Assembly: GCA_965242865.1 (NCBI GenBank)
Contig: CBDETK010000013.1
Coordinates: 4,416,001-4,480,000, forward strand
Source of the DNA: Candidatus Latescibacterota bacterium
GTDB taxonomy: Bacteria > Latescibacterota > UBA2968 > UBA8231
Direction: 5' to 3'
Length of the DNA: 64,000 nucleotides
This document shows positions 22,673-59,648 of the stretch, piece by piece. The first letter of the stretch is position 1, and every line of letters starts with the position of its first letter. The translations under genes were made by a program, and so were the position numbers. The notes below the pieces were generated by a model. It searched no databases. It was not told the origin of the DNA and saw only the letters and a program-made list of their open reading frames with translations.

Positions 22673-24742
22673 CTAGTACGCGACCCCGACGACGCGGCTT
22701 TGCTCGGCGTCGCCCGAATCACCAGCGACAAAGACGCGGGCCACGTACAGGCCCGGAGGAACGGCGCGACCGTGGTCGTCGCGGCCATCCCACGCTTTGT
22801 CTGTGTAGCGGCCATTGGCCTCTTCGCCGGCAAAGAGGACGCGCACGCGCCGGCCGCTCAAGTCGTAGAGCGCGACCTCAACCGGCCGCGGGGTGCTCAG
22901 TGCCAGCAGGTTGTAGAGGATGATCGCCTCGTCGTTGATGCCGTCGCCATTGGGGGTAAACGGATTGGGCGCAGCCTGCACTTGGCCCAACAGCTGCCCC
23001 TCGGCCAATACGGACGGGCTGAGTACCGTGGTGCCGGAAAAGGCGTCCTCGTCGCCCGCGCCCAAAAAGGCCACATTGCCCGGGTCGATCACTTGGGCGG
23101 CGCTCGGCTCGGTCGTGCTCCGCGCCGCGGCGGTGAAGTTGGTGCTGTACGTCAGCACGTTGGTCTGGAAGCGAATATGCACCTGCGTCTGGTCTTCGGT
23201 CACCGCGGGGAAGCGCACGGCAAAGCGGTCGTCGGCCACCTCGACAATGGCGAAGTCCCCACTCGCCTCGTCGAGATCGTGGTGCTCGGCCGCGATCGCG
23301 CCATTGGCATGGACGATCTGCACTGCGTCGATGCTCGACACGCGCGTCGGCGTGTTGATCTCAACGGTGTCGAAGCCGCGCAGGCCGGCCGTACCCATGG
23401 CGGCGCGCACGGCAAAGGTAAAGGACACTTCCTCAGCCACCGTTACCTCGCGGGGAAAGACTTCGCCGACCAAGGCGTCGGCAAACGGCGGCGTCAACAG
23501 CTCGAAGCTCAGCGCCCGGATCACCCGCGCCGCCTCTAGGTCGCTGCTGTTAAAAACGACCTCGAACTGCATGTAGCGGCGCGGGCTAGGCGAGACAATA
23601 GGCCCGTCCGCCGGATACGGCGTGCTGAAGGGGCTCCAATTGATCAGGTCGTCGGTCACGGCCCCGGCCATCCACTCGCGGCCGGCCGCATCGGTAACGG
23701 GCGTCTGGCCGGCCTTTTGGGGAAAGGTGCGGTACTCGGCTAGGCCCATCTCCTCCCCGGGGTTTTCCAGCGAAAAAGGGATGTCCTCGGCGTCTTGCTT
23801 GCCGCGCAGGCGGCGGGTGTACACAAAGGGCGAGGTGTCCGTGCCGGTGCGCGTGCGGATCTGCGCGCTGGAGAAGCGCGGGTCGCCCAACGCCTCTTCC
23901 ACCCAGCGCAGAGTGCCCCACACGGCCGGTTGCCCGGCGTCGAAAATGTTGGACACGTACTGGGCCCGCGACAAAAAGCCCTTGCCGAAAACCTCGATCT
24001 CGTCGATCTCAAAATCCACCGGCGAAGTCGCCCGCAAGCGCAGGTGCTGGACGTAGCGCGGGGGGTCGAGCGGCACGTCGATAACCGCAACTTGATTGTC
24101 GGTTTCGGCGATCAGGGGCTTCCAGATTGGGGTGTTCTCGCTGGTCAGGTTTAGGCCGTCGTTGGTAAACAGCTCGTAAGCCCGTAGGTAGTCGTTTTGG
24201 AAGGGGGTTGAGGGCGAGGCGACGACCGTGTTGCGCGGATAGATGCGGATCCGCTCCACCCCGAAGCGCGCTCCTAAATTGAGCAATACCAAGATGCCGA
24301 GGGCGTTCTGGCTCTTGCGCTCAAAGGCCAACAACTCGCCGCCCGGCTCGTCCGCGAGCAGCTCCTTTAACATCATCTCCAAGTCGAGCGGCTTGAACGT
24401 GCCACTGAAGTCGAAGACGTTGGGCGATTCAATGGTGCCGCCGCGGTCGATGGTGCCGACAGCCACGTTTTCTCCCTCGGCAATGCGCCGGGGCAGGATG
24501 CTGTGGGCAAAGTCCTCGCGGGTGAATTCGATTAAGTCGCCGGGCGCATTGCCCACCAGCAGGTTGTTGGGGTTCAAGGGCGAGCGGTGCTCGGCGTCTA
24601 TCGTAGAGACGGCCGCCTCGCCGTTGCCCTGCCAGTCCAAGTCGCCGCCCTCTCCAATCGAGACCGCGTCGAGGGCCAAACCTCCGCTCGACAGATAGAG
24701 CACCCAGGCGAAGCTAGCGGCCGCAGCACAATGCGCTTTCAT
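22673..24742 (-). CDS. Secreted paralog 1: discoidin-like domain + conserved core + FlgD-Ig/T9SS-B-like C-terminal domain
   Basis: RBS GGAGGA before ATG 24742, signal peptide, NLG, EIEVFGKGF, RTRTG, WSPFS, SPSPRRY, GFD, FTPNGDGIND, WDGRD, PGLY, ends GVAY. Confidence 0.8.
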   Translation of the reverse strand: MKAHCAAAASFAWVLYLSSGGLALDAVSIGEGGDLDWQGNGEAAVSTIDAEHRSPLNPNNLLVGNAPGDLIEFTREDFAHSILPRRIAEGENVAVGTIDRGGTIESPNVFDFSGTFKPLDLEMMLKELLADEPGGELLAFERKSQNALGILVLLNLGARFGVERIRIYPRNTVVASPSTPFQNDYLRAYELFTNDGLNLTSENTPIWKPLIAETDNQVAVIDVPLDPPRYVQHLRLRATSPVDFEIDEIEVFGKGFLSRAQYVSNIFDAGQPAVWGTLRWVEEALGDPRFSSAQIRTRTGTDTSPFVYTRRLRGKQDAEDIPFSLENPGEEMGLAEYRTFPQKAGQTPVTDAAGREWMAGAVTDDLINWSPFSTPYPADGPIVSPSPRRYMQFEVVFNSSDLEAARVIRALSFELLTPPFADALVGEVFPREVTVAEEVSFTFAVRAAMGTAGLRGFDTVEINTPTRVSSIDAVQIVHANGAIAAEHHDLDEASGDFAIVEVADDRFAVRFPAVTEDQTQVHIRFQTNVLTYSTNFTAAARSTTEPSAAQVIDPGNVAFLGAGDEDAFSGTTVLSPSVLAEGQLLGQVQAAPNPFTPNGDGINDEAIILYNLLALSTPRPVEVALYDLSGRRVRVLFAGEEANGRYTDKAWDGRDDHGRAVPPGLYVARVFVAGDSGDAEQSRVVGVAY

Positions 24743-24890
24743 TGCAATCCTCCGTGCGATTTGCGGCATAAAACAACCAAAGTACCGGCATAAATCAAGT
24801 TGAGCGCGGCTCGCCCGGCCCATGCCGAACTTGCTAAACGGCCCTCTCCTTTTCTTAATTACCAGCACTCAGTACTCAAGGAAGAGACCC

Positions 24891-27011
24891 ATGCAGCGCA
24901 TCATCGCTTTGTGTTTCCTGCTCGTCCTGTCCATGGCGCCGGCGCACGGCCGCGGGGAGTTTCGCGTTGGCGGGGCCGCTGGCAACCCTTGGTCCAGCCT
25001 GCTGTCGGAAGAAGGGGCCGGCGAGTACTGGCTCTTTGATGCCGAGGGCCAGCGCACGAGCACCGAACTCGTGGGCGTCACGCCCCACGGCGCGGCCGCC
25101 GACACCCTGATTGACTTTGCCGACGACGCCATTGGGCCGCGCTTCATCGACCCATTGGTCAATCTGACCCGCACCGATCCCAATTCCTCGTCCATCAAAA
25201 TTCCCCTGCCCTATATCGGCGGCGAGGCCCAGACCACCGATGGCTGCGGTGCGGTCGATAACCACACGCCCGTAGTCAAGAAGCAATTCGATGGCGATGT
25301 GACCACGGCGCACTTTCGTCGCTTCACCCCCGGTCAAGGCATCTTCAGCGGCGGCACCATCATCGCCGGGGTCACGGGCGAAGGCTGGAAAAACTCCGTG
25401 GTCATCGATTTTCGGGCGGCCGTACCGGTCAACCGCATTCGCTTCTTTCCGCGCCTCGGCCAAGAGGACGACCTATTGCTCATCAACGAACTCACCGAGC
25501 CGCGGCCCTCGTTGGCAACCTTTGGCGTAGATAGCTTTGCCAGCAACTTTCTCGCGTGGTACGAAATCCGCGTCGGCGACAACAATGTGCGCTTTGCCAA
25601 CAGCCCCTGCGACAAGGTCAGTGCCAACCTCTACGGCCTGCGCTGGGTGCGCAACCAAGACCCCGAGCTGACCGTGCTCGAATCCAACCGCGAAAACCTC
25701 GACCCCGTAGTAGAGCTGCGCTTTCCCACCGAGTCGATCCGCTGGATCACGGCCCAAGCCTTCCCCTTGCGCGACTGGGAGGTCGCTGAATTTGAGGTGT
25801 ACGGCGAGGGCTTTGTCGAGGAGACCGTGCTCGTCACCCAGATTCTCGACTTTGGCCAGCCGATCAACTGGGGCAAAATTCGCTGGGACGCCGCGGTGCC
25901 CGAGGGCACTCGCATTGAGGTCCGCACCCGCACCGGCAACACCCCGGACCCCAGCCTCTATTTCGCCGAAAACATCAACGGCGACATCCGCCCGATCACC
26001 TTGGCCGCGTACGAAAAGCTCGACCCGTCCGGCCGCCTGCCCACCGTGTACGACACCGACAACTGGAGCTTCTGGTCGCCGCCCTACGACTTTGCCGCGG
26101 GCTTGCGCGACAGCGCGGCACCGGACGAGGCGTGGCGCGACGGTACGCCGCTGTTGTCGCCCGGGCCGAGCCGCTACATCCAGCTCTCCTTTCGCCTGTT
26201 CGCCACCTTTACCACCGCGCCCCGCATCCGCTCCCTCGCGCTCCAATTCGGCAATGCACCGGCCGCCCGCGAAGTCCTCGGCGAGGTGTGGCCCATTGCC
26301 GTTGATTCCTTTGCGCCGCGGGAGTTTACGTACATCGTCCGGCCGGAGTTCAGTGCCGAAGACACCGGCTTTGACCGGCTGGAAATCCGCACGCACGCCC
26401 AAGTCCAATCCGTCGCGGGAGTTAGACGCGACGGCACCGCACTCGACTTGGACGACTTTGTCCCAAATATCCAAGCCGACCGCCTCGTGGTGTCCTTTCC
26501 CCGCCTGCAAGGCGAGGACGACAGCTTCAAGCAGCTCGAAGTGCGCTTTGTGGTGCCGGTCTTGCGCTTTGGCACCGAGTTTTCGGGCTGGGTTTTCGAC
26601 AGCGACGACCCCGATCAGATCAAACAGCAAGTCCGCCCGGGCAACGCCACCTTTCGCTTTTCGGGCGACGCGCTCGCGGTCAACACGCCCGTTGGCGGCC
26701 GGCTCCTCGTCAATGTGGCGGTGACTTCCAACCCACTTACGCCGAATGGCGACGGGCTGAACGAGACCGTGGAAATTGCCTACAAGCTGCGCGAGGTCAC
26801 GGCTGTTCGCCGGGTGCGGCTGGCGATCTACGACCTCGCCGGCCAGCTCGTGGTCGAGCTGCCGCCCATTGCCGCACGCAGCGGCGAGTTCGCCCATCGC
26901 TGGGACGGCCGCGACGCCGCTCGGCAACTCGTCCCCCCGGGCACCTATATCTGGCGGCTGCAATTAGAAGAGCAAGAAGAACGCGCCGGCATCCTCGCGG
27001 TTGCGTACTGA
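24891..27011 (+). CDS. Secreted paralog 2 of the same family
   Basis: Signal peptide MQRIIALCFLLVLSMAPAHG; IDF, EFEVYGEGF, RTRTG, WSFWS, SPGPSRY, GFDR, TPNGDGLNE, WDGRD, ends AVAY. Confidence 0.8.
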   Translation: MQRIIALCFLLVLSMAPAHGRGEFRVGGAAGNPWSSLLSEEGAGEYWLFDAEGQRTSTELVGVTPHGAAADTLIDFADDAIGPRFIDPLVNLTRTDPNSSSIKIPLPYIGGEAQTTDGCGAVDNHTPVVKKQFDGDVTTAHFRRFTPGQGIFSGGTIIAGVTGEGWKNSVVIDFRAAVPVNRIRFFPRLGQEDDLLLINELTEPRPSLATFGVDSFASNFLAWYEIRVGDNNVRFANSPCDKVSANLYGLRWVRNQDPELTVLESNRENLDPVVELRFPTESIRWITAQAFPLRDWEVAEFEVYGEGFVEETVLVTQILDFGQPINWGKIRWDAAVPEGTRIEVRTRTGNTPDPSLYFAENINGDIRPITLAAYEKLDPSGRLPTVYDTDNWSFWSPPYDFAAGLRDSAAPDEAWRDGTPLLSPGPSRYIQLSFRLFATFTTAPRIRSLALQFGNAPAAREVLGEVWPIAVDSFAPREFTYIVRPEFSAEDTGFDRLEIRTHAQVQSVAGVRRDGTALDLDDFVPNIQADRLVVSFPRLQGEDDSFKQLEVRFVVPVLRFGTEFSGWVFDSDDPDQIKQQVRPGNATFRFSGDALAVNTPVGGRLLVNVAVTSNPLTPNGDGLNETVEIAYKLREVTAVRRVRLAIYDLAGQLVVELPPIAARSGEFAHRWDGRDAARQLVPPGTYIWRLQLEEQEERAGILAVAY

Positions 27012-27146: not shown

Positions 27147-28058
27147 ATGCAAGAGCGGACCAAATTCGTCTTAGCGGCCGCGCTGGTCATGGGCTTGTGC
27201 GGTACGTCCTTTGGCCACGCGCCTCCCGGCGAGCTTTACTTCGCCGTGCAATTCCCCGACAACCTCGTCCCCACGATGGACGGCGACCTGTCGGACTGGG
27301 ATGTCGTGCCGATTGATCCGTACACGATCCGCAACGACCGCCTCTACTCGCCGGTGGCCGATATTCAGCCGGTGGGCCGCGGCGAGATCGATGTCAGCGA
27401 CATCAACATCCGCCACCTCATCGGCTGGAACGACAGCGCGAACAAGCTCTACTACATGTCCGAGGTGTTCGACAATGTCCACAACCTAGACCGCGAAAAT
27501 CCCTCGGCCTTCTGGCAGGACGACGCTTGGGAAGTAGAGGTCAACCCGGACCACACGCCGACCGAGGAGCACAACCTCGAAGGCGAGCCGGCCAACAACT
27601 TCAGCTACAAGTGGGCCGTGCCGCCGGTGGAAGGGGCCTATCAGTTCTACCGTCCGGTCAGTGCGCTAGAGTGGCTGGTCGATGGCAGCGAATGGGTGGA
27701 CTTTGGCTGGGGGTACGACGGCGAGCAGTTCGGCGAGAGCACCTATTACTACGAGCTGGCCATCACGCCAATCACCTCGCTGCCCAACGACGCGTCGGCT
27801 ACTCCCGATCAGGCCGTGGTTTTCGATCTCGCGGAAGAGGAGATCATCCACACGTCTGTGACCGTGGGCGACTTCGACGAGCCATGCACCGAGTGTGCGC
27901 TCGAAAGCTATCAAGGCTTCTGGACCATGTCGCCGGAAATGTGCTGCACAGCCACCAACGACGTGGTGTTGGCCCCGCTAGAGCCTTCGATGGCGGCCGC
28001 AGCCGACGGGACCTCGGTCGAGGACGTGAGCTGGGGGCAGATCAAGGCCGCGTACTAA
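27147..28058 (+). CDS. Secreted CBM9/DOMON-like protein with C-terminal SVE..SWGQIK tail
   Basis: RBS AAGGAGG, signal peptide, PTMDGDLSDW, GWND...LYY...D, DDAWEV, YYYEL, very acidic, ends TSVEDVSWGQIKAAY. Confidence 0.7.
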   Translation: MQERTKFVLAAALVMGLCGTSFGHAPPGELYFAVQFPDNLVPTMDGDLSDWDVVPIDPYTIRNDRLYSPVADIQPVGRGEIDVSDINIRHLIGWNDSANKLYYMSEVFDNVHNLDRENPSAFWQDDAWEVEVNPDHTPTEEHNLEGEPANNFSYKWAVPPVEGAYQFYRPVSALEWLVDGSEWVDFGWGYDGEQFGESTYYYELAITPITSLPNDASATPDQAVVFDLAEEEIIHTSVTVGDFDEPCTECALESYQGFWTMSPEMCCTATNDVVLAPLEPSMAAAADGTSVEDVSWGQIKAAY

Positions 28059-30845: not shown

Positions 30846-31898
30846 CTACAGCCCCTCCTGCACATCCTTTTTCCGCACTTTCCAGATAAATGCGTCGTAG
30901 TAGTAGTGGATCAGGGCAAAGGAACTGAGCAGCGAATAGCTGAAGAGGTCGAAATTGGTGTTGAAGCCGACGAGGCCAAAGCCAAAGTCGCGCACCAAGC
31001 CCTCGCTCAGCGCGTGAAAGACGAGGGCGTAGGCCGCGCACAGCAGGATAAAGAACTTGACGCCCCGCTTGCTCGCCACGTAGCGCAGGAGGGCTGAATC
31101 GCCGCCCGTGCGCTCGACCTTGTGGCGGTTGTAGAAGTACACCATGACGATGTACTGAATCCCGTGCATGATCCGGTGCGCCACCGCAAACACGAGCAGA
31201 TAGGCCGTGGTAAAACTGGTGAAGTACCACAGGAAATAGCTCGACAGCAAAAAGGCGTACTTGAGGGGATTGAGGGCCAAGCCGCGCCGGGCGCAATAGG
31301 CGATGTGCCCCAAGTAAATCAGGCCGTAGCCAATGGCAAGGGTCCACGAAATTTGATGGACCCATTGCACGGCCTCCGCGCTGATCGGCAAGTGCCACTC
31401 GTGCAACATGCGCACCCAGACCGCGGAAAACAGCGGCGACACCACGAGCATATTGCCAAAGAAGATCCAATTGAAGGCCAAGTCGAACTTGGCGGTGGCC
31501 GGAGCGCCGGCCTTGGCCTTGAAGTCGTACACGCGCGCAAAGCCGTATTGCTGCATCAAGCTGTGCTGGTGATCCCACAAGGTCACGATCAACACCAAAC
31601 TCAACGGCGCCCACTGGATCAGGCCGTACGCAAAGGCGACCAACACCACCGGCCCGACGATGAACCGCTCCTTGAAGCGGGCGAACTCGGCCGGCGAGCC
31701 ATAGACGCGCAGCCACGTGACAAAGTGGTGGGGAATGGTCACCCACAGGGCAATGGCCGCTAGCGCAGCCCCCGGCAGGTAGTGCCCGGACACCAGCGCA
31801 AAGCAGACCGCGGCAAAGGGCAGGCTCACAAACCAGATGTAGTCCTGCCGGCGATCGACGATATAAGCAGGTTGGAGAACGATGGAATTAGTCGCCAT
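30846..31898 (-). CDS. Polytopic membrane protein with several His boxes, function unknown
   Basis: About 9-10 hydrophobic segments; PHHF, DHQHSLMQQYG, HRIMHGIQY, IHYYYDAFIWK. Confidence 0.75.
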   Translation of the reverse strand: MATNSIVLQPAYIVDRRQDYIWFVSLPFAAVCFALVSGHYLPGAALAAIALWVTIPHHFVTWLRVYGSPAEFARFKERFIVGPVVLVAFAYGLIQWAPLSLVLIVTLWDHQHSLMQQYGFARVYDFKAKAGAPATAKFDLAFNWIFFGNMLVVSPLFSAVWVRMLHEWHLPISAEAVQWVHQISWTLAIGYGLIYLGHIAYCARRGLALNPLKYAFLLSSYFLWYFTSFTTAYLLVFAVAHRIMHGIQYIVMVYFYNRHKVERTGGDSALLRYVASKRGVKFFILLCAAYALVFHALSEGLVRDFGFGLVGFNTNFDLFSYSLLSSFALIHYYYDAFIWKVRKKDVQEGL

Positions 31899-33465
31899 GA
31901 GCAGTGGCCAACAGGGCTAACGCCACAGCGTCGGGGCTGAAGCGGATTTCGTGGGCGCGACGCTGGCGCACGGTCGCGGCCAGCTCCTGCACCGCCGCTT
32001 GGAGCTGGGCCTCGGCCCAATCGGCCTCCACCTCGGCGCGGATTTCGTCCAGCCGCGGCAGGCGGGCCGGGCGGCGGCGCAACACGTGCAGGACAATATA
32101 ACCATTCTCCGTGGCAAAGGGGCCGTGGAACGTCCCTTCGGCGGCGCGGAGGGCGCGGCTGACCGGGTTGTCGCCCTCTAAGGCGCCGCGGCCGTAAATC
32201 ACGCTGACAAAGCGATCGACCAGCGCGGTCGTATCGCGCCCGGCGCGCAGCCGCTCGACAATGGCGGTGCCCTCGGCCTGGTCGCGCGCCAGCAACCGGC
32301 GCACCTCCACCTCGGCCGGCGCAGTGTACCGGACCTTGTGCTCCTCGTAAAACAGGCGCAGGCCGTTGGGATCGGGCGCGGGCACCTGCGCTCGCAGCGC
32401 GTCCTGCAAGCGGCGCGCGAGCTGGGCCTGCCGCAGTCGCTCCAACTCGCGCTGTAGGCCGGGGTCGTCGGCCAGCGCGAGCCGTGCGATTTCGAGGGGG
32501 ACCAGCACCTGCCGGCCGACCTCGCGCCGCAGCACCTCGTGGCGCGCGCCTTGGCCTCTTAGCAGCGCACGGGCCTGCGCGACCGTTAGCGCCCCGCTGT
32601 CGTACTCGACCGCGACCGCCTCGGCCGCCCGGCCCGCGTCCAGCCCATCCGGCTCGTAGCGCACGTTGTAGCGCGCGTGGAGGGTATCGTAATACGCCAA
32701 CAGTTGCCGCCCGAGCTTTTCCCGCAGCACCAAGCGCAACACGGTCTCTCGCTCCTGCTCAAAGCTGACCGGGTGCGTGTCCGTGAGCTTGATGAGAAAG
32801 TACCCGTCGGCCACCTGCATCGGCTCGGAAATTTCCCCGACCTGCATGGCGAAGGCCCGTTCGGTCAGGGCGGCATGCGAGGCCATGGTATCGCCCCAGC
32901 GGTGATAGCCCATGTCGGCGCGCCGCTCCAAAATCCGCGAGTCCTGCGAGTGTTGCAGCGACAGCTCCTCAAAGTCTGCCCCGGCGTCGAGGGCCGCCAA
33001 AATCTCCGGTAGCTGGGCGGGGTCGCGCACCATCAGCAGGCTGAAGCGCACGCGGCGGTTGTACGGGCTGCGCTGGAAATAGGCCCGTAGCTCCTCTTCG
33101 GCAACCTCGGGCTGGGCGATCCCGGCGCGGGTGTACAGGGCCTGTTGCACCAGCCGCGCCCGCGCCTGCGCCTGCCATTGCAAAAACTCCGCGCGCTCGC
33201 CCAAGCCGCGCCGCTCGGCTTCCTGCACGAGCAGCGTTTGCTCGACGATGGCGTCCAAGAGTTGCTCGGCCCCGTACTCGGCCCGCAATTCCGGCGCGAC
33301 CTTGGCGAGGTACTGGCGGTAGTCTGCCACCCGAATCGCGGTTTGGCCCACCTCCACCAAAACGGCCTCTTCAGCGGCCCCGGCCGGGCCGTCCTCGGCG
33401 CAGCCGCTCGCGCCGAGCAGCACCGCGCAAAGGGCCGGGCGCACCCAACGCTTATTTAGCTGCAC
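31888..33465 (-). CDS. SurA/PrsA-like PpiC-type peptidyl-prolyl isomerase lipoprotein
   Basis: Lipobox ASGC, LLVQEAERRGL, GADFEELSLQHSQD, DMGY, GEISEP, second rotamase-like repeat (FHGPFATENGY). Confidence 0.8.
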   Translation of the reverse strand: MQLNKRWVRPALCAVLLGASGCAEDGPAGAAEEAVLVEVGQTAIRVADYRQYLAKVAPELRAEYGAEQLLDAIVEQTLLVQEAERRGLGERAEFLQWQAQARARLVQQALYTRAGIAQPEVAEEELRAYFQRSPYNRRVRFSLLMVRDPAQLPEILAALDAGADFEELSLQHSQDSRILERRADMGYHRWGDTMASHAALTERAFAMQVGEISEPMQVADGYFLIKLTDTHPVSFEQERETVLRLVLREKLGRQLLAYYDTLHARYNVRYEPDGLDAGRAAEAVAVEYDSGALTVAQARALLRGQGARHEVLRREVGRQVLVPLEIARLALADDPGLQRELERLRQAQLARRLQDALRAQVPAPDPNGLRLFYEEHKVRYTAPAEVEVRRLLARDQAEGTAIVERLRAGRDTTALVDRFVSVIYGRGALEGDNPVSRALRAAEGTFHGPFATENGYIVLHVLRRRPARLPRLDEIRAEVEADWAEAQLQAAVQELAATVRQRRAHEIRFSPDAVALALLATAHGD

Positions 33466-34822
33466 GGTCTTCCTTCATCTTTTGAATCGCCGCCAATTCC
33501 CGCTTGCTCTTTTCCACATCCCCTGCTTTTAGATAGGCGATGGCCAATTTTTGCCGCGCAGCTAAAAATTCCGGTCGCCCGGCCACTGCGGTTGCCAACG
33601 CTTCGGCGGCCCGCGCAAAGTCGCCCTCGCGTGCATAGAGCAAGCCCAAGAAGTAGTTGACATCCACATCGTCGGGCGTCCGCTCGTGCGCTGCGCGCAG
33701 GCTCGCGAGGGCCTCGTCAAAGCGCTGCAAGCGCAGCTGCGCTTGGCCCAAATTGTAGTGGGCCTTGGCATATGCTGGGTCCAAGGCCAGCGCGGCTTGG
33801 TATTCGGCGATGGCCGCGGCGAATTGGCCCGAGCGCAGGTAGAGGTTGCCCAAGTTGTTGCGGTAGCGCAAGCTGTCCGGCGCCAAGCGCACGGCCAGCC
33901 GGTACGCTTCGGCCGCTTCGGCCAAGCGGCCCTGCTCCGCGTACAACAGCGCGAGTTGCGCCCGCGCCTCGTGGTCGTCGGGCGCGTTGCCCAGCATCCG
34001 CAGTTGGTCGTCAATTTTGTCGAGTTGCCGGTCGAGCACCCGAAACCGCGCCAGCACTTGGGCACTCTCCGCGCGGTGGCCGAGCCGCTTGAGGGCACTG
34101 GCCAGCGCGAAATACGCCTCCTTAGACAAGGAGTCGAGCGCGACCGCCCGGCGGGCAGCCCGTTCAGCGGCTGCGTACGCGCGCCGCTTGAGTTCCACCT
34201 GCGCCAAATCGACGTACGCGGCCGCAACCGTGCTGTCCAGCGCGACCGCTCGCCGCAGCGCGGTAGCGGCCCGCTCAAAGTCGAGCTCCTTCAGGCGCGT
34301 CCGGCCCAAGAGCCGATAGAAGGACGCATTCGTGGAGTCGCGGGCCAGCCCTGCTTGCAGCAGCGTTTCCACTTCGCCGTACTCGCCGCGCAAGAAGTAG
34401 ATGTAAGCGAGGTCGTAGTACGTCGTCAGATGGCCGGGGTCCAACGCGAGCACCCGGCGGTGTTCGTCCATGGCTTGGGCGTAGTTGAGCTGCTTGACGT
34501 ACAGGGCTGCGAGGTTGTGCCGCGCCGATACGTGCGTTGAGTCGAGTGCCAAGACGCGCTGATAGGCGGCCATGGCGCGGGGGTAATCGAGCGAGCGCAC
34601 GTAAGCATTGCCTACGTTGTAGTGGATTTTGGCGGACTCAGGCGCGAGCGCGGCGGCTTGTTGGTACGCGTCAATGGCCTCGGTGTGGCGGCCCTCGGCC
34701 GCGAGCGCAATGCCGCGCACAAAGAGGGCTTCGGCCTCTAGAGCCGCGCCCGGGCGCACTTTTTCTGGCGGGCTTTGCTCCGCACAGGCGCACCAGACGA
34801 GGCAGAAAAGTAGGACTCTCAT
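33452..34822 (-). CDS. Tetratricopeptide repeat protein (exported)
   Basis: Many TPRs (IHYNVGNAY, ARHNLA, RNNLGNLY, AHYNLG); short Cys-containing signal; ATGA overlap with the upstream gene. Confidence 0.88.
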   Translation of the reverse strand: MRVLLFCLVWCACAEQSPPEKVRPGAALEAEALFVRGIALAAEGRHTEAIDAYQQAAALAPESAKIHYNVGNAYVRSLDYPRAMAAYQRVLALDSTHVSARHNLAALYVKQLNYAQAMDEHRRVLALDPGHLTTYYDLAYIYFLRGEYGEVETLLQAGLARDSTNASFYRLLGRTRLKELDFERAATALRRAVALDSTVAAAYVDLAQVELKRRAYAAAERAARRAVALDSLSKEAYFALASALKRLGHRAESAQVLARFRVLDRQLDKIDDQLRMLGNAPDDHEARAQLALLYAEQGRLAEAAEAYRLAVRLAPDSLRYRNNLGNLYLRSGQFAAAIAEYQAALALDPAYAKAHYNLGQAQLRLQRFDEALASLRAAHERTPDDVDVNYFLGLLYAREGDFARAAEALATAVAGRPEFLAARQKLAIAYLKAGDVEKSKRELAAIQKMKEDRAAK

Positions 34823-45025: not shown

Positions 45026-45205
45026 CACCACTTTGATACGGAATGATCACAGTTCTAAAGGATCGAGGGCGGGACGCCCTCCGGACGCAGCGGGAACCGC
45101 AGAGAAGGCGGACGCAAAGTAAGGATCGCGTATAGTTAGCACTTAGCAAATTTACATGGCCCTAATATATTTATTGAATAGCTAAAATTTCTCTAGGAGG
45201 CCTTC

Positions 45206-50030: not shown

Positions 50031-52379
50031 ATGAATTTTCGCATGGCCCTCGTCGCCCTCTTGATCTTGGGCGGCAGCCATCGGCTACCGCTCGCGGCCG
50101 ATGAACTGCGCTACGACTCGGTGCGCGACTGGCGTCCGTGGAATCTGCCCTTGGGCGCGGTGGAATTGACGGCCCAAGGCGTGATCCAGCCCACCCGAAT
50201 TGAGAAGCGGACCGACGCCGTGCGCGACCTTGGGGCCTTTGAGGGGGGCATCCGCGCCGCCGGGTCCAATCGCGCCGCGGCCCGCTTCGCCATCGACGGC
50301 AACCCGGCGACCGGCTGGGCTCCCGACCCAGCGGCCTCCCCTGAAAACTGGTTTATCGAGATCGACTTGGGCCGCGCGGTCTCGGCGCACAGCGTTACCT
50401 TGGTCTTTGACGCAGAAGCACCGCCCTTCGCGCTGTTCGACCTCTTGCTTTCGACCGGCGAGCCAGAAACCGACTTTATCGCCGCGCCCATCGAAGGCTC
50501 CCTCGTCTATCGAGTCAAAGAGCGGGTCAAGGAAAACGACCTCCACCGCTTGACGTACCCAATCGCGCACATCGACCAAGAACCCATCCAGTTCATCCGC
50601 TTTGAGCCGCTGCTTTTCGTGCCCGGTGCCCGCCTCGTCGAGGTCGAGGTCGAGACCATCGGCGACAACATCGCCCTCGGCCTCCTAGAGCGCGGCGGCG
50701 GCGTTGACATCAACATCAATCTCGCCAGCAACGATTCCCAGCCCCTCGGCAAGGCAAGAGCGCTCTTTGACGGCGACCTGTACGAGCGCTGGCGTGCGGG
50801 CACGGCGTCTAGGGGCCTAGTTGACATCCTCGCCCACATGGTTCTCGACTTAGGCGCGGTTTACTGGGTCGATCAAACGCGCATTATCGGCGGGGTGGTG
50901 GTGCGCTCCGGCTTTGGCGGCGGCATTACCACTCGCCACTACGTCTCGCGCCGACGCTGGGGCTTCCGCTTCTACGAGCTGATGACCTCGGATGGCTCGC
51001 TGTCGCCCGATGGGACCCGCCTGTGGACCAAGCACTTTTCCGGGGCCTCCCCGGGGGAGCAGACCTCCAAGGGCCTAGTGGATCACCACTTCGACCTGTT
51101 GCCGACGCGCTTCGTGCGCATCTTCTGGAAGTACTGGGATACCAGTTGCTATTCCTTCCAGCGGCTCGGAGAGGAGGGCGGCATCAACCGAGTTCCCGGC
51201 TGTGGCGCGGGTGGAGAAACCGACGAGATTCAGATTTTCGGCGAAGGCTTTCCAGCCGAAGTCGGCTTCCGCTCGCCCCTGCTCGACTTGGGCGAGGACA
51301 AGAACTTCAACTCGATAGAATGGGGCGGCGACCAGCCGCCGGGCACCCTGATCGAAGTCCGCACCCGCACGGGCAACGAAATTTTGGAGACCTATACCTA
51401 CCACGACAAAAACGGCAAGGAAGTCTCCGAGCGGCGGTACCACAAGCTCATCCCCAGTTTCAAGGGCCAGATCGACACCTCGTTTGTGGCCGGCGGCGAT
51501 TGGAGTGCTTGGAGCCGGCTTTACAGCTTCTCCGGCGATGCCTTTCTCTCGCCTTCGCCGCGACGCTACATGGAGATCGACGTCAAGCTGGTCTCCAGCG
51601 AGCCCGACCGGGCCGCGACGCTCGACTTCCTCGCCATCCATTCCACCCCGCCGCTGGCCAGCCGGGTACTGGGCGAAATTTTCCCCCAGCAGGCCCAGCC
51701 GGGGGTGCCGACCGAGTTCACCTATTACTTGCAGCCCGAAAACGCCCGTGGCTTTGACCGTCTCTCGGTCGAGTCGGACACCCCGGTGCAATTTACGAGT
51801 GTCGCGCACAATGGCGCCGCGCTGGCCGTGCAGATAGACACCACGGCCAGCGGTTTCCTCGTCCAGCTACCCAGCCGCATCCGCACTGATTCGCTCATCA
51901 AGCTGAAGTTTGAATCCTCGGTGTTCCGGCAATCGACGCGCTTTGACGTCTTTTTGCAGGACAGCCGACAAGACGCGAGCGTGCGCCAGCGCGTCGATCC
52001 GGGCGATGCCACCGACTTGGTCGCGAGCAACACCAACATCGTCAGCTTGCCGGTCTCGCGGGAGCTACTCGCCAATATATCCCTCTCGGCCAAGGCGATT
52101 ACCCCCAACGGCGATGGGATCAACGACGAACTGACGCTGGCGATCTCCTTAGTCAATGTGCTCGCGCCGCGCCCCCTGCGGCTCCGCCTGTACGACCTCG
52201 CCGGCCGCCTCGTGTGCGACCGCAGCCAAGACACCGCGGCTGGCCCGCAAGAAATCGTCTGGGATGGCCGCGACCGCCACGGCGAGCGCGTGGCCCCGGG
52301 CCTGTACCTGCTCGAAGTCCTCGTTGAGGGCGACGCGGGCGACGCAAAAACGCAAGCACTCGTCGCCGTAGCGTACTAG
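50031..52379 (+). CDS. Secreted paralog 3 (long form, two discoidin-like domains)
   Basis: IDGNPATGW, IEIDLG, GDNIALGL.ERGG, LDLGA, EIQIFGEGF, RTRTG, WSAWS, SPSPRRY, ITPNGDGIND, ends AVAY. Confidence 0.8.
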   Translation: MNFRMALVALLILGGSHRLPLAADELRYDSVRDWRPWNLPLGAVELTAQGVIQPTRIEKRTDAVRDLGAFEGGIRAAGSNRAAARFAIDGNPATGWAPDPAASPENWFIEIDLGRAVSAHSVTLVFDAEAPPFALFDLLLSTGEPETDFIAAPIEGSLVYRVKERVKENDLHRLTYPIAHIDQEPIQFIRFEPLLFVPGARLVEVEVETIGDNIALGLLERGGGVDININLASNDSQPLGKARALFDGDLYERWRAGTASRGLVDILAHMVLDLGAVYWVDQTRIIGGVVVRSGFGGGITTRHYVSRRRWGFRFYELMTSDGSLSPDGTRLWTKHFSGASPGEQTSKGLVDHHFDLLPTRFVRIFWKYWDTSCYSFQRLGEEGGINRVPGCGAGGETDEIQIFGEGFPAEVGFRSPLLDLGEDKNFNSIEWGGDQPPGTLIEVRTRTGNEILETYTYHDKNGKEVSERRYHKLIPSFKGQIDTSFVAGGDWSAWSRLYSFSGDAFLSPSPRRYMEIDVKLVSSEPDRAATLDFLAIHSTPPLASRVLGEIFPQQAQPGVPTEFTYYLQPENARGFDRLSVESDTPVQFTSVAHNGAALAVQIDTTASGFLVQLPSRIRTDSLIKLKFESSVFRQSTRFDVFLQDSRQDASVRQRVDPGDATDLVASNTNIVSLPVSRELLANISLSAKAITPNGDGINDELTLAISLVNVLAPRPLRLRLYDLAGRLVCDRSQDTAAGPQEIVWDGRDRHGERVAPGLYLLEVLVEGDAGDAKTQALVAVAY

Positions 52380-52599: not shown

Positions 52600-53511
52600 A
52601 TGCGCAAAGTCCTAGCGTTGAACCTAGGCGTATTGCTCGTCGCCGGTGCTGCCTTCGCGCAGGAGCCGGCTGATGTGCCGCTCTATTTCGCCGTGGGGAT
52701 CCCCAGCAACGCCCTGCCCACCATCGACGGCGACAATGCCGACTGGGCTTGGGTCGATCGCAGTTTTGAGATCACCATCGAAGACATGCACCCGCTGACC
52801 GGCGGTGCCGACGACGCCGACGATCTGTTCATCGACCTGATCATCGGCTGGAGCGATGCCAACAACCGCATTCACGCCATGATTCACGTCCACGACGACT
52901 TCCTAATCGTCGATAAGAACCCGGCCTGCACGTTCCGCGACGACAACTGCGAAGTGCATTTCGATCCCGACAATCAAGGCGGCGGCCCGTACTCGGCCCC
53001 CGACGACCAAGACTTGCAGCCGGCCTATCAGATGTGCCTGAGCTTCTCCGAGCAGTTCTCGCGCGTCCAAATGTACAACGGTGCGCTGGGCAATTTTGAG
53101 CAGGACGCCCTGAACTTCTGGTGGACCCACACCGATTTCGTGGATGCCGGTCACGTCAACACCGGCCAAGAGTACTACTACGAGTTCAGTGCCGAGCTGA
53201 TGGACCCGATCTCGATGAGCGGCGGCCCGGACGCCAGCACCGTGTGGACGCTCGCGGCCGAGCAGACCATCGGCATGTCGATCTCGGTTGACGACGCCGA
53301 CGAAGGTCTCAACGCCAACGGCAACGATCCGCTCACTGAGGACTGCTGCGAGAACGGTTTCTTCTGGCAGGCCCAGTACAGCATGGCCGAGCAGTTTATG
53401 AACCTCGGCGGTATGCCCGACGTCTTCCTAGCACCGATCGAAGAAGTCGATACGTCGGTCGAGGCAAGCTCTTGGGGCCAAGTCAAGTCGCTGGTAGGCG
53501 AAGAGCTCTAA
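52600..53511 (+). CDS. Secreted CBM9/DOMON-like protein with SVE..SWGQVK tail (paralog of 27147..28058)
   Basis: RBS AAGGAGG, signal peptide, LYFAV, PTIDGDNADW, IGWSD, DDNCEV, YYYEF, ends TSVEASSWGQVKSLVGEEL. Confidence 0.72.
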   Translation: MRKVLALNLGVLLVAGAAFAQEPADVPLYFAVGIPSNALPTIDGDNADWAWVDRSFEITIEDMHPLTGGADDADDLFIDLIIGWSDANNRIHAMIHVHDDFLIVDKNPACTFRDDNCEVHFDPDNQGGGPYSAPDDQDLQPAYQMCLSFSEQFSRVQMYNGALGNFEQDALNFWWTHTDFVDAGHVNTGQEYYYEFSAELMDPISMSGGPDASTVWTLAAEQTIGMSISVDDADEGLNANGNDPLTEDCCENGFFWQAQYSMAEQFMNLGGMPDVFLAPIEEVDTSVEASSWGQVKSLVGEEL

Positions 53512-55460: not shown

Positions 55461-57830
55461 ATGAAAAGTACGGGCGCATTGTGCTTGGTTATGGCGTTGG
55501 GCAGCGTTGCCTTTGGCCAGCGCGTTTCGTTTGACACGCGCGCCGCGTGGCAGGAATGGGCGCGGCCGGTCGGCGCGGTCGACCTGCAAGCGACCGGCCG
55601 CGTCCAGCCGGTGCCGGTGCGCAAAAACATCGACGCCGTGCGCAATGCCACGCACTTTGGCGGCGGCATCCGCCGGGTCGGCAGCAACCCCGGGGCCGCC
55701 AGCCGCATCATGGATGGCGACCCGACGACGAGCTGGGCACCCGACCCCGCCGATGGCTTGGAAAACGCGTACATCGAACTTGACTTGGGTCGCTTGGTGA
55801 CCGCCTCCGAGATCGTCCTTGCGTTCGACGAGGCCGCGCCGCCCTTTGAGTTTTTCAACGTGCTGCTGTCGAGCGGCGAGAAGTTCTTTACCAATGCCCT
55901 GGTGCCGGTGGAAGGGACCCTCGAATACGGCCTCTCCAAGAGCATAGGCTTCAACGACCGCCACCACCTCGCGCTCGACCCCGCCAGCGCAACCCTGGGC
56001 TTGAGCGCGGCCGGCTCGGACGACATTGGCGGCGGCTATGTCGAGGGCACCGTCCGCACGTTCAAGGAGTCTTCGGGCTTGGTCCGCATCATTCGCCTTG
56101 AGTTGGCCAAGTTCGTGGAGGGGGCCGGCCTCGCCGAAATCTCGGTTTCCACCCTCGGCGACAACATCGCCCTCGGCCTCATCGAGCGCGGCGGCAACAT
56201 CGAGTTGATCACCGACTTGCAGGCCGTGCTGTCCGGCGGCGAAAACATGGTCGACGGCGATATTGTCACCCACTGGGGCATGCAGACCTACCACCAGACC
56301 CAAACCGGCTTCGACATCTTCAATCGCATCATCTTCGACTTAGGGGCCCATTACTGGATCGACCAAATCCGCATCATCGGCGAGCCGGCCGGGGCCCCGT
56401 CGCGCATTCGCAGCCGCTACGCCAATTTCTTCTGGTATCAGTTGCTCGCGTCCGACGGGTCCCTCGCCCCGGACGGCACCCTGAATTTTCACGAGATCGC
56501 CTTTGTCGATGACAGCCCCCTCAACGAGACGACCATCCGCAACTTCGACCACCAATTCGGCGTGCAGAAAATCCGCTACATCAAGCACTATTTCCCGTCC
56601 TCGCGGCACGGCGGCGAGCGCACCGGTACGCACGGCACGTATCGCCTGTTCGCCCTGATCAGCGAGTTCCAGATTTACGGCGCGGGCTTTCCGGCTGAGT
56701 TGCGGCTGACCTCGCCGATTCTGGACCTCGGCGCGGCCAAGGCCCTGACGTCGGTTGAGTGGGACGCGGACATCCCGCCCGGCACGCGCCTCGAGTTGCG
56801 CAGCCGCACCGGTGGGGAGGTCGTCGAGAATGTTCACTACTTCGACAAAAAGGGCAAAGAGATCACTGAGCGGCGGTGGAACAAGACGCCCAAGACCTTG
56901 CGCGGGCCGACCAAAACCACCATTTCCGTCGGCTCGGACTGGAGCGTCTGGAGCGATCCGTACGTGACCTCTGGGGCGCTGTTTAGCTCGCCCTCGCCGC
57001 GCCGCTACGTCCGGCTCGACCTGCGCTTGATTTCCGACGATCCCCAAGCGGCCCCGGCGATCAACGCCCTGCACCTGAACGTGGAAAACCCCATGGCCCT
57101 CCAAACCCGCGCCGAAGTCTTTCCGAGTCGAGTCGAGCCGGGCGTCAAAAGGGATTTTACGTATTTTGTCCTGCCCACGTTTGGCGGGCGCTCGCAGGGG
57201 TTTGATCGCCTGACCATGGCCGCGTCCGTGCCCGTTGACTTTACGAGTCTAAAGGTAGGCGACGAGCCGGTCGAGGTCGCCCTCACCCTAGTCGCCGACG
57301 GGTTTGTCGTCGATTTGCCGACCACCGTCCGCCGCTCCGAGCTCATCGAGCTCGCGTTCAGCAGCACCATTTACCAAAATCAGACGCGCTTCGATCTCTT
57401 TCTCGGCAACACCAACCTCGGCAACGACGTGCGCCAACTCGTCGACCAAGGCGACGCCAAAGCCGATGTGCCGAGCGAATCCGTTTCGGTGCAACTGCCG
57501 GTCAACGACCTCCTGCTGGCCAACGTCGCCCTTTCGACGCCCGTGCTGACGCCCAATGGCGACGGGGTCAGCGACGAACTGGCCATTGAGTTCGACGCGC
57601 TCAAGTTGGTGACGCCGCGGCCCGTGCGGGTCTATATCTACGACCTGGCCGGCCGCATGGTGCGCGTCCTCGACCGCGGCGCGGGGCTCGCTCGGCACTA
57701 CCGCTTCACTTGGAACGGCCGCGACCACGCCGGTGCGCTCGTGCGGCCGGGGACCTATCTAGCGCAAATCGAAATCGCCGGCGATTCCCAGACCGAGACG
57801 GTGCAGCGGATCGTGCCGGTGGCCTACTGA
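55461..57830 (+). CDS. Secreted paralog 5 (long form, closest to 50031..52379)
   Basis: MDGDPTTSW, IELDLG, GDNIALGLIERGG, FDLGA, EFQIYGAGF, RSRTG, WSVWS, SPSPRRY, LTPNGDGVSD, ends PVAY. Confidence 0.8.
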   Translation: MKSTGALCLVMALGSVAFGQRVSFDTRAAWQEWARPVGAVDLQATGRVQPVPVRKNIDAVRNATHFGGGIRRVGSNPGAASRIMDGDPTTSWAPDPADGLENAYIELDLGRLVTASEIVLAFDEAAPPFEFFNVLLSSGEKFFTNALVPVEGTLEYGLSKSIGFNDRHHLALDPASATLGLSAAGSDDIGGGYVEGTVRTFKESSGLVRIIRLELAKFVEGAGLAEISVSTLGDNIALGLIERGGNIELITDLQAVLSGGENMVDGDIVTHWGMQTYHQTQTGFDIFNRIIFDLGAHYWIDQIRIIGEPAGAPSRIRSRYANFFWYQLLASDGSLAPDGTLNFHEIAFVDDSPLNETTIRNFDHQFGVQKIRYIKHYFPSSRHGGERTGTHGTYRLFALISEFQIYGAGFPAELRLTSPILDLGAAKALTSVEWDADIPPGTRLELRSRTGGEVVENVHYFDKKGKEITERRWNKTPKTLRGPTKTTISVGSDWSVWSDPYVTSGALFSSPSPRRYVRLDLRLISDDPQAAPAINALHLNVENPMALQTRAEVFPSRVEPGVKRDFTYFVLPTFGGRSQGFDRLTMAASVPVDFTSLKVGDEPVEVALTLVADGFVVDLPTTVRRSELIELAFSSTIYQNQTRFDLFLGNTNLGNDVRQLVDQGDAKADVPSESVSVQLPVNDLLLANVALSTPVLTPNGDGVSDELAIEFDALKLVTPRPVRVYIYDLAGRMVRVLDRGAGLARHYRFTWNGRDHAGALVRPGTYLAQIEIAGDSQTETVQRIVPVAY

Positions 57831-57878
57831 GGAGCCCTGCTTTTGCCACCTTACAGCGTACAGCAAAGAGGAACCGCG

Positions 57879-59648
57879 ATGACCCGCGTCGCACTCGCAT
57901 TAGCCTGCCTAGCCCTGCCGGCCGCGGCCGCGGAACGGCTCAAAATCGGCGGCGATGGGCTGGAGTGGGAGGGCAACTCGCTCGTGTTCAACGCCCTCGA
58001 AGTCACGGACGAAAGGGGGCTCTCGCCGTTGGAAGCCGACCCGGAGGAAAACATCCTGCCGCGCATCAAGGAGCTCGGGGGCAGCGCGACCACCTCGGTG
58101 CGCACGGCCGCGGCGCGCTCCAACCAGATCCTCAACGAACTCATCGATGGCTCCCACACCACGGGCTGGCGCGTGTACACCGACCCCAACGGGGCCGAGC
58201 TCGAAGTCGATATGGGGGCGATCTTCGTCTTGCACCGCATCCGCCTGTTGCGCGGCGTCCTCAACGACGACGAGCGCTCCCTGCGCGGCTACGAATTCTA
58301 CGTCAACGACGGCGACTCGCTCAACTTTGTCGGCGGCAATCCCGTGTATGGGCTCATAGCCCAAGACCGCTCGCACGGCCTGCCCGAACTCGACTTGAGT
58401 TTTCCGCCGACGCAGGTGCGCTTTTTTCGGCTGCGCAGCACGGGCGAACGCGGCTTCCAGATGGGCGACCTCGAGGTTTTTGGCGTGGGCGTCACGCCCT
58501 TTGCCCAGTACATCTCCCAAGTGATCGACCTAGGCGAGGCGGCCAACTTGGGGCCCATAGACGTGTACAGCCGCATCAGCGGGGCCGCCCAAGCCCAGTT
58601 CAGCACCAAGACCGGCTTTGTGGTCACGGACTCGCTCTACTTCCGCCAGACGGGCATTCCCGGGGAATTGGAGGAAGTGACCTTGGCGAATTTCGATCGC
58701 ACGCTCGACCCTTCGTATGCCGGCGTGGTGCGCGAAAACAACCGCGACTGGAGTGCGTGGTCCCCGCCCTACGCCGAGCTGATCCGTGCGCCAGTCCATT
58801 CGCCGGACAACCGGCGCTACCTCCAGTTCCAATTCAAGCTCCTGTCGAACAGCTTGCTCGACAAAGCCGTCATCGACTCCGTGGTCTTCAACTATACGGT
58901 GCCGTCGCTGGCCGATTCGGTCATCGCCGAAATCAGCCCGACGACCGCGATCTTGGGGCAGGAAAACGAGTTTACCTATCACCTGCGCTCGGTCGTCTCC
59001 AGCGGCCATCGCGGCTTTGACACCGCGATCATCCACACGCCGTTTGCGGCCCGCGCCACGGGCGTCCGCGTCGATGGCGTCGAGATCGACAACTTCACTT
59101 GGGAGTTTGCTGCCGGCCGCCTACAGGTGCGCTTCCCGGACGCCCGCATTACCCGCAGCGGCCAAGCGGTCGCCGTGCGCTTCGTCAGCTTGGTAACCGT
59201 CTCGGGCACGGAGTTTCGCGGCGAGGTCGCCGACAGCCAGTCCGACGCGTTTCCCCAGCGCGTCGCGTTTGGCGATGCGGTCGAGGAAGCGGCCGACAAC
59301 ACCCTCGTGGTCAGCGCCCGCATCGACGACGATCTCTTCACTGGCGTCGCGTTTTCGTCCGCCGTAATCACGCCCAATGGCGACGGCATCAACGACCGGA
59401 TCACCCTCGACTACATCCTGCTCAAGGCGACCCACGCGGTTGAAGTCGAGGTCGTGGTGTACGACTTGAGCGGTCGGCCGGTGCATCGGCTCTACAAAGC
59501 CCGCGATCGCTCCGGCCCCAACCAAGTGAGCTGGGATGGCCGCGACGCGGCCGGGACCGTGCCGCCGGGTATGTACTTGCTTCGCCTAGAGGCCACCACC
59601 GACGCCGGCATTGCCACGCAAATGCGGAGCATTGCCGTAGTATATTGA
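57879..59648 (+). CDS. Secreted paralog 6 (short form)
   Basis: RBS GAGGA before ATG 57879, LIDGSHTTGW, VDMG, DLEVFGVG, STKTG, WSAWS, SPDNRRY, ITPNGDGIND, ends AVVY. Confidence 0.8.
   Translation: MTRVALALACLALPAAAAERLKIGGDGLEWEGNSLVFNALEVTDERGLSPLEADPEENILPRIKELGGSATTSVRTAAARSNQILNELIDGSHTTGWRVYTDPNGAELEVDMGAIFVLHRIRLLRGVLNDDERSLRGYEFYVNDGDSLNFVGGNPVYGLIAQDRSHGLPELDLSFPPTQVRFFRLRSTGERGFQMGDLEVFGVGVTPFAQYISQVIDLGEAANLGPIDVYSRISGAAQAQFSTKTGFVVTDSLYFRQTGIPGELEEVTLANFDRTLDPSYAGVVRENNRDWSAWSPPYAELIRAPVHSPDNRRYLQFQFKLLSNSLLDKAVIDSVVFNYTVPSLADSVIAEISPTTAILGQENEFTYHLRSVVSSGHRGFDTAIIHTPFAARATGVRVDGVEIDNFTWEFAAGRLQVRFPDARITRSGQAVAVRFVSLVTVSGTEFRGEVADSQSDAFPQRVAFGDAVEEAADNTLVVSARIDDDLFTGVAFSSAVITPNGDGINDRITLDYILLKATHAVEVEVVVYDLSGRPVHRLYKARDRSGPNQVSWDGRDAAGTVPPGMYLLRLEATTDAGIATQMRSIAVVY

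Follow-up and report, generated by a model that had tools for sequence, protein, structure and literature searches.

Here we analyse a stretch of 64,000 nucleotides (the window) from positions 4,416,001 to 4,480,000 of contig CBDETK010000013.1 in the Candidatus Latescibacterota assembly GCA_965242865.1 (genome G000). It carries six homologous genes for secreted proteins, family X, beside genes for a predicted 870-amino-acid (aa) outer-membrane barrel (Y), CBM9-like proteins (Z), foldases and a lipoprotein (L27). Sponges, lakes and the dark ocean commonly harbour Latescibacterota; no cultured member of this lineage, probably PAUC34f, is known. X and Y make up 4.4% and 2.0% of the called coding residues of the genome, none of them annotated. 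We favour, at slightly less than even confidence, a reading in which X subunits exported through SprA cap Y barrels energised by an ExbB/ExbD (ExbBD) motor and act as capture modules for uptake. Gene calls came from a hexamer model (4,350 called genes, 6.0-Mb genome), which missed some genes. The window holds the following genes of the system:

22673..24742, minus strand: X paralog, subtype "pair A", 689 aa; after the signal peptide come a discoidin/CBM32-like domain, a pair of beta-sandwiches and a CHU_C/FlgD-type tail ending VAY
24891..27011, plus strand: X paralog, subtype "pair B", 706 aa; CHU_C match of 40.6 bits, over the cut-off
27147..28058, plus strand: Z, secreted CBM9/DOMON-like protein, 303 aa, with a C-terminal TSVE..SWG.[IV]K motif
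31888..33465, minus strand: SurA/PpiC-type foldase, probably a lipoprotein
45206..46840, plus strand: second foldase, upstream of the main cassette
50031..52379, plus strand: X paralog, long subtype, 782 aa; an additional discoidin-like domain stands at the N-terminus
52600..53511, plus strand: Z, CBM9/DOMON-like protein, 303 aa
53618..55414, plus strand: X paralog, short subtype, 598 aa, for which we have an AlphaFold2 model
55461..57830, plus strand: X paralog, long subtype, 789 aa
57879..59648, plus strand: X paralog, short subtype, 589 aa; the barrel gene is next downstream
59688..62300, plus strand: Y, predicted ~24-strand outer-membrane beta-barrel, 870 aa
62288..63604, plus strand: SurA-N-like foldase lipoprotein, 438 aa, of the same family as the other peptidyl-prolyl isomerases (PPIases)
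63769..64000, plus strand: start of lipoprotein L27, 249 aa, which continues beyond the window edge

Position 22673 is the stop end of a minus-strand gene whose likely start is the ATG at 24742, with GGAGG upstream; this gene is divergent from the one at 24891. An earlier sequence-only reading had described the six X genes as paralogs sharing a signal peptide, a series of motifs and a sorting-like C-terminus. All six reading frames are present and homologous (26-39% identity in 15/15 BLASTP pairs, E 8.5e-34 or better), and a simple hydropathy heuristic finds an N-terminal hydrophobic stretch in each of them. The motifs E[IV].P, GFD, [YH]DL.G, W[DN]G.D and PG.Y occur literally in all six proteins, as does the terminal [VL][AV]Y, and the two long members (782 and 789 aa) share GDNIALGL.ERGG. 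Other motifs listed as common to the family are looser: [ILF]D[LFM]G, ExxxxGxG, WS.WS, SP..RRY and Q.V..G[DN]A are each literal in five of the six, and S.[IV].D.G and TRTG in only four. TPNGDG.ND is literal in three, its PNGDG core being invariant in the alignment of all six; DG..T.W as written matches none, the spacing in the alignment being DG...T.W, in four proteins.

The six genes are indeed paralogs, but they belong to a far larger family than had been supposed. A hidden Markov model (HMM) built from them, as that reading had proposed, identifies 99 genomic members scoring over 120 bits, and the next scores fall below 49 bits and are mostly tail-only matches. X is the largest family among the called genes. 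By the same heuristic 92/99 paralogs have a hydrophobic N-terminus, 97/99 end in Tyr after a type-B-like PNGDG.ND tail, and 3/99 are lipobox-like. Recent duplicates at C13:700523, 736726 and 749253 adjoin fibronectin-III repeat genes, and two of them lack the tail.

Searches of X against Pfam and NCBIfam returned only F5/8 type C, CHU_C, FlgD_ig or type IX secretion system (T9SS) tail matches. Among the six window proteins, F5_F8_type_C was matched in four and CHU_C reached its cut-off (27 bits) in four; TIGR04131 stayed below its cut-off (35 bits) in all six, and FlgD_ig matched the same tail. The AlphaFold2 model of 53618 (80 sequences) is almost all beta, with a predicted local distance difference test score (pLDDT) of 90. 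Mature residues 36-184 adopt a discoidin/CBM32 fold (Z-score 16.1, root-mean-square deviation (rmsd) 2.1 over 126 aligned residues to 4zxe; Z-score 15.7 to 4a42), beta-rich domains follow, and residues 472-579 superpose on the PorU C-terminal domain (CTD) with Z-score 12.5 and rmsd 2.6 over 99 residues, in keeping with the T9SS-type tail that the earlier reading had pointed to. A PDB profile search found FlgD chains on the tail and a marginal C5a peptidase match (E 0.07) on the same stretch.

The X core matches no characterised enzyme family in Pfam, NCBIfam or the PDB profile search. We rejected an enzyme reading, there being no catalytic family and no Cys in 49/99 members; positions conserved in at least 70% of the 99 are mostly Gly, Pro, Trp, Asp or hydrophobic and include no catalytic set. 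Galactose oxidase, a whole-chain Foldseek match, was likewise set aside, as the match reflects the discoidin domain only (TM-score, the template modelling score, 0.2). Judged by its sequences, X is non-enzymatic.

The sequence-only reading had also held that the N-terminal parts vary while the core is conserved. This is weakly so among the 99 paralogs, where mean identity is 0.28 for the discoidin domain, 0.31 and 0.28 for the middle domains and 0.36 for the tail, but the opposite is seen in 77 orthologs of 53618, whose discoidin domain is better conserved (0.68) than all other parts (0.57-0.62), which rules against hypervariability. Freshwater and groundwater genomes hold an ortholog of each window X at 55-63% identity. 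The 99 paralogs differ greatly at the positions that follow the DG...T motif, and the binding face is not conserved among them. The "variable ligand-binding subunits" of the earlier account are better described as stable ortholog groups whose subtypes hold fixed cassette positions; on this comparison the X repertoire is old and fixed. The "SusD-like" label also fails, X being all-beta, rarely lipobox-like and without a SusD match.

X is tightly linked to Y. Every one of the 37 Y genes in this genome has an X no more than three genes away (p 3e-44), as have 22/28 Z, 19/27 SurA-like foldase and 11/13 L27 genes, and, less often, FG-GAP/ASPIC (13/45), TPR (10/31), PMT-TPR (9/15) and DUF6785/6784 (7/29) genes. 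X and Y together form 41 clusters, and the 25 with a Y hold 75/99 X. The order X-Z-X-X-X-Y-PPI-L27 is kept at orthologous loci in genomes from sponges, open water and fresh water. An X is present at 69 of the 73 Y loci fetched, a sample biased toward close relatives, and contig ends truncate the remaining four. The Z at 52600 is as well conserved as the barrel (72-73% in freshwater and groundwater relatives). The linkage of X with barrel, PPIase and CBM9-like genes, whose absence would have counted against the earlier reading, is strong and conserved. Promoter and terminator scans gave chance-level results.

Trees show that X clades are tied to cassette positions and recur as sets. The 22673 and 24891 proteins each belong to a clade of six (approximate likelihood-ratio test (aLRT) support 99.6 and 100), and one pair A and one pair B subtype occur together at 6/6 loci in the genome. 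A Z-L27-X1-X2-X3-Y cassette is found four times; positions 1 and 2 are supported clades, and the position-3 clade is weak (aLRT 49, lost in the tree without the tail). The X genes that precede Y-Y pairs group in a single clade with seven members. Distances between X and the downstream Y correlate for every domain (26 of 27 pairs, one being dropped for a truncated gene call; rho 0.28-0.51, p 0.004 or less, Mantel test), a pattern that shows joint inheritance, fits heteromers of fixed make-up and is not proof of contact.

The Y model is an outer-membrane barrel (pLDDT 80.5, predicted template modelling score (pTM) 0.80) with ~24 membrane strands, counted from its secondary structure. It carries an inserted beta-sandwich at mature residues ~213-347 and an Asp/Asn-rich loop at ~432-550, which is the most conserved part; from strand order, both would face outward. 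Y has no match in Pfam, NCBIfam or a PDB sequence search, and its fold matches tie: porins score best (Z-score 13.2), followed by MtrB (12.3), FimD (12.1; rmsd 5.6, 327 aligned) and SprA (10.9), with Foldseek TM-scores to the Y query all at or below 0.29. In the ESM Atlas the nearest named cluster to Y is DUF6029 at 0.88, which is a lead only, and those nearest to L27 stand at 0.80. On the model and these searches, Y apparently belongs to no known family and is a new outer-membrane barrel. In the closest relatives the barrel gene is 91-97% identical. The X expansion goes with one Y clade bearing an extra N-terminal segment (34/37 here). Two Y clades, each with seven members, combine into pairs of constant order (e.g. 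C13:1374935 and 1377722), of which six are adjacent and the seventh is interrupted by two genes; barrel heterodimers are possible.

Across 168 genomes of the phylum, Y was found in 107, X in 105 and L27 in 104, counts that ignore kinship, so that related genomes are not independent. Every X- or L27-positive genome is also Y-positive, and three families of the same class (f2-f4) have none of the three (0/56). Names among distant Y relatives are only Latescibacterota or "Gemmatimonadota"; one locus titled Planctomycetota is 80% identical and probably mislabelled. A search with a basal X gave only two matches.

The earlier reading had supposed that a dedicated machinery exports or assembles X, and such a machinery exists, elsewhere in the genome than the window. 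The most divergent X and Y of this genome lie in loci with ExbB, ExbD, a 1,080-aa TPR protein and a PorV-like barrel. A master operon comprises X, a PorV/PorP-like barrel, Y, the TPR protein, ExbB, two ExbD, a DUF4159 protein and L27. Its parts occur at three basal loci (C13:4722000-4742000, 4620000-4635000 and 496000-506000; L110, L111 and L112), two of which have ExbB/ExbD, and L112 adjoins an FG-GAP array and STAS-like genes. The operon is also present in five distant genomes, G008, G011, G016, G031 and G099, with single parts absent in some. In 20 further regions around the best L27 matches, some of them cut short, we found TPR in 20, Y in 18, ExbB in 16, ExbD in 15, X and DUF4159 in 14 each and the PorV-like barrel in 7. 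By gene content and sequence, X, Y and the lipoprotein trace to a conserved ancestral master operon. Its PorV-like barrel has a weak PorP/SprF match (E 3.6e-7, below cut-off), in one family L27 carries an AgmX/PglI C-terminal domain over cut-off, and the DUF4159 protein combines an N-terminal membrane anchor with an extended linker. Six similar anchored DUF4159 genes stand in or at the edge of type-A-tailed FG-GAP arrays (C13:393593, 3167025, 3188245, 3192644, 3203797 and 496197) and may link those arrays to the same motor.

Of the T9SS core genes proposed for checking, PorV, PorU (624 bits, above its cut-off) and SprA (a 2,150-aa frame scoring 87.5 bits for SprA_N) are present. SprA occurs in 160/168 phylum genomes. 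The 96% complete genome G031 has X, Y and PorU and no SprA match, and represents either an assembly gap or a SprA-free case. PF11751 (PorP/SprF) had no match in the genome, in a search whose control was silent.

From the parts, folds, linkage and co-occurrence described above we infer a route of export, a docking site, a ligand and a direction of transport. X would cross the inner membrane by Sec, be held in transit by the cassette foldase, and leave through SprA with its tail retained. The tail would then dock on an outer-membrane barrel, a PorV-like shuttle, Y or both. Two to four fixed X subtypes together with Z would form a heteromeric cap over a given Y. A common ExbB/ExbD motor from the master loci, coupled through DUF4159 and TPR proteins, would open or drive Y and thereby let captured solutes into the periplasm. 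Copying of the X-Y-Z-foldase part ~40 times as satellite cassettes would have given a fixed repertoire of capture modules, the whole resembling a SusC/D/E/F utilisome in function and made of unrelated parts. Among 70 of 141 non-core neighbours scanned for enzymes were eight enolase-superfamily, four PhyH and three Gfo/Idh/MocA proteins, which we counted in favour of capture and uptake. In G008 a DUF4159 copy and a Z stand beside most Y, a placement that suggests cognate transducers and binding proteins.

Several observations weigh against this reading. The scanned neighbours include no secreted glycoside hydrolase or lyase; they hold one GH4, one 3-keto-disaccharide hydrolase and one sulfatase, and with the GH4 as the only glycoside hydrolase among these 70, X loci do not look like classical polysaccharide utilization loci. 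Near X, PhyH and Gfo enzymes show no enrichment (p 0.53 and 0.46). Ordinary TonB receptors persist in the genome (22 plug domains), as in Y-negative relatives (20, 22 and 36), so replacement of these receptors by Y, an idea we considered, is not supported. GldM and GldN gave no match and GldL one weak coiled-coil match far below cut-off, with uninformative controls. The discoidin fold is matched as well by IFT25, which does not bind sugar (Z-score 15.6-16.0 vs 16.1 for CBM32). Co-divergence of X and Y spans all domains and can be explained by co-duplication alone, and 24/99 X lie in clusters without a Y. A TonB-like His is present in only 18/30 DUF4159 anchors, 10 of these being near-identical G008 copies, and 5/8 DUF4159 copies of this genome lie in FG-GAP arrays away from any Y. 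Finally, some genomes have 15 to more than 40 Y and only one or two X: G008, at 99% completeness, has a single X for 16 Y matches, and in G099 the only two X lie in the master operon, against more than 40 Y loci. X is therefore not an obligate partner of every Y, and strict one-to-one anchoring of X on Y is ruled out. G009, with 4 Y and 17 X, departs in the other direction.

Four other explanations have to be set beside capture and uptake. X could serve display or adhesion only, as type-B-like T9SS adhesins on Y or on the PorV-like barrel, much like SprB on SprF or PG1035 on PorP, with the motor moving, releasing or positioning them in the manner of Agl-Glt or Nfs and nothing being imported. 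The tail with its terminal Tyr, the large expansion in sponge-associated genomes and the master-operon order, X followed directly by the PorV-like barrel or Y, which is that of type B cargo and shuttle (excerpts of PMC12618676), all fit adhesins, and the single ExbB with its two ExbD, the large TPR protein and the AgmX/PglI TonB_C-like domain recall the Agl-Glt core (excerpts of PMC3169522). We nonetheless hold display to be unlikely: free-living marine and freshwater genomes retain the same cassette, Y multiplies without X, the GltG model scores far below cut-off, and a ~24-strand pore far exceeds the need of a shuttle. An assembly role would account for other features. Here the discoidin domains would be protein-interaction modules and X a structural lattice or collar on Y, within an outer-membrane machine that assembles or exports WG.IK-tailed or FG-GAP proteins. 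The strong conservation of the discoidin domain among orthologs, the fixed sets of subtypes and the fold scores of IFT25 and DOC domains, which tie or nearly tie CBM32, would agree with this, as would the dedicated foldases, TPR proteins and PMT-TPR glycosyltransferase-like protein of the cassettes and the presence of WG.IK-tailed Z beside Y even without X. Yet WG.IK-tailed and FG-GAP proteins are mostly untied to Y loci, SprA already offers an export route and occurs in 55/56 genomes of f2-f4, which lack X, Y and L27, and 37 versions of an export machine are hard to justify; we consider this role slightly less likely still.

Could Y instead be an usher? Its ~24 strands and the place of FimD among its top fold matches would suit a chaperone-usher-like fibre in which the SurA-like lipoprotein is the chaperone and the X subtypes, several and fixed per cassette, are ordered subunits of a heteropolymeric filament; foldases also track X-rich cassettes (G000, G009) and were not found in ten X-free G008 Y regions. 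But FimD is tied with porins and MtrB at low TM-scores, Y has no usher Pfam domain and occurs without X, its insert would be extracellular by strand counting, unlike an usher plug, and X has a T9SS-type tail and models confidently as a monomer, so that a fibre strikes us as very improbable. We give a still slimmer chance to the view that the master operon is the missing T9SS energiser of a phylum without GldLM, with X as test or accessory cargo. The operon does hold a PorV-like barrel, CTD cargo and a proton motor, DUF4159 copies stand in type-A-tailed FG-GAP cargo arrays, and GldM was not found in 168 genomes, vs SprA in 160; that GldM search, however, had no positive control that gave a signal, f2-f4 have SprA without X, Y or L27, and the 37 barrels would be left unexplained.

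The system can be compared with known envelope machines. SusC, SusD and SusEF loci are likewise multi-copy and combine a large barrel, surface binding-type proteins and an ExbB/ExbD motor, with the membrane-anchored, extended DUF4159 protein here in the place of TonB. Y differs from SusC in having no Plug or TonB-receptor domain and ~24 strands vs 22; X is an all-beta CTD protein rather than a SusD lipoprotein, and the scanned neighbours, unlike SusCD loci, hold no secreted polysaccharide hydrolase. FimD/PapC systems share a similar strand count, a chaperone-type gene and several subunit subtypes per locus, and differ in their usher domains, as well as in the low TM-score, the predicted outer side of the insert and the T9SS-type tail seen here. 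Residues 36-184 of X resemble CBM32/discoidin modules and Z has weak CBM9_1 matches (CBM9/DOMON); no catalytic domain is attached to X, and the discoidin fold also occurs in non-lectins.

T9SS genes have been reported in other phyla of the Fibrobacterota-Chlorobiota-Bacteroidota group (excerpt of PMC11285876). In excerpts of PMC12618676, PorP/SprF shuttles are the cognate partners of type B cargo, and a single orphan shuttle handles three of them; SprB-SprF and PG1035-PorP-PorE are examples (excerpts of PMC12618676 and PMC9143113). X resembles such cargo in its signal peptide, its CHU_C-like CTD-fold tail, the position of the cargo gene directly upstream of a barrel and the presence of SprA, PorU and PorV in the genome, and a few shuttle-like barrels could serve many cargo, as Fjoh_1677 does. 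The differences are that no PorP/SprF (PF11751) match was found here (control silent) and the usual X neighbour is the new ~24-strand barrel; that the X tail mixes CHU_C and FlgD features and scores below the TIGR04131 cut-off; that there are 99 cargo vs 12 in F. johnsoniae; and that GldLMN were not found (controls uninformative) and an ExbBD motor stands in the operon, where the Bacteroidota T9SS is energised through the GldK/PorK track (excerpt of PMC12635249). The Agl-Glt core consists of AglR, AglQ and AglS with GltC, D, E and G (excerpts of PMC3169522). Agl-Glt/Nfs machines share with our system one ExbB/TolQ, two ExbD/TolR, a TPR protein of very large size, barrels in the outer membrane, lipoproteins and, in one family, an AgmX/PglI C-terminal domain. 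There is no GltG ortholog here (best 18 bits vs a cut-off of 650, on a lipoprotein C-terminal domain), the barrel and lipoprotein families are unrelated by the searches run, and T9SS-tailed cargo and tens of satellite cassettes set the system apart. As to kinship with GltC/D/E, the master-operon TPR protein gave matches to generic TPR models only.

The combination of an ExbBD motor, T9SS-type cargo and an unclassified barrel is apparently a new arrangement, and the envelope system apparently undescribed. We found no description of an X-Y system in the literature searched, with subscription journals and bioRxiv supplements outside reach, and a term search of the sampled text of a sponge-associated PAUC34f genome survey (PMC7081726) returned no mention of outer-membrane systems. 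We propose, quite tentatively, a fourth ExbBD-powered envelope machine beside Ton, Tol and Agl-Glt: a ~24-strand barrel opened by DUF4159 and TPR proteins and capped by T9SS-exported lectin-fold heteromers, in which one or two master operons would power tens of modules and take up ~7% of coding capacity, with a T9SS without GldLM. If true, this would establish a new outer-membrane barrel family, a capture and uptake route parallel to SusCD from unrelated parts, and a use of T9SS cargo with an ExbBD motor where GldLM are not found. The ~100 natural binding-domain variants and tail-barrel pairs also bear on how T9SS tails are sorted outside Bacteroidota.

The remaining genes noted in and just beyond the window are these:

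33452..34822, minus strand: TPR protein, a recurrent cassette companion
34819..36444, minus strand: FG-GAP/ASPIC-UnbV propeller, a recurrent cassette companion
36458-36946, minus strand: short heptad-repeat coiled-coil protein, which yields the spurious weak GldL match
39508-42036, minus strand: membrane protein with a spermidine-synthase-like domain
41945..45031, minus strand: FG-GAP/ASPIC-TPR fusion, upstream of the main cassette
47344-48951, minus strand: MauG/MbnH-like di-haem protein with a type-A-like CTD
48938-49855: protein like a formylglycine-generating enzyme (FGE)-sulfatase with the WG.IK motif, adjoining the MauG/MbnH-like gene
C13:4480547-4485136 (locus L109): M28 peptidase-FtsX fusion, 1,529 aa, just past the window, after L27

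In relatives, a DUF6785/DUF6784 membrane protein follows the M28-FtsX fusion, and each is present at 36/73 Y loci; the two are candidates for an inner-membrane step. Proteins of PMT_2-TPR type, GT-C glycosyltransferase-like (e.g. L111:1194-3287 and L113:3791-5755), directly follow one Y clade and, by analogy with TMTC enzymes, may glycosylate X or Y. The spermidine-synthase-like membrane protein, often fused to TPR, recurs near Y here and in G008 (L129, L133, L135, L137 and L190). The motif T.V...[ST]WG.[IVL]K ends 27/28 Z and ~25 unrelated secreted proteins, including the FGE-sulfatase-like protein of the window, among 69 loose regular-expression matches genome-wide, some of them due to chance; this C-terminal motif is possibly a second sorting or anchoring signal.

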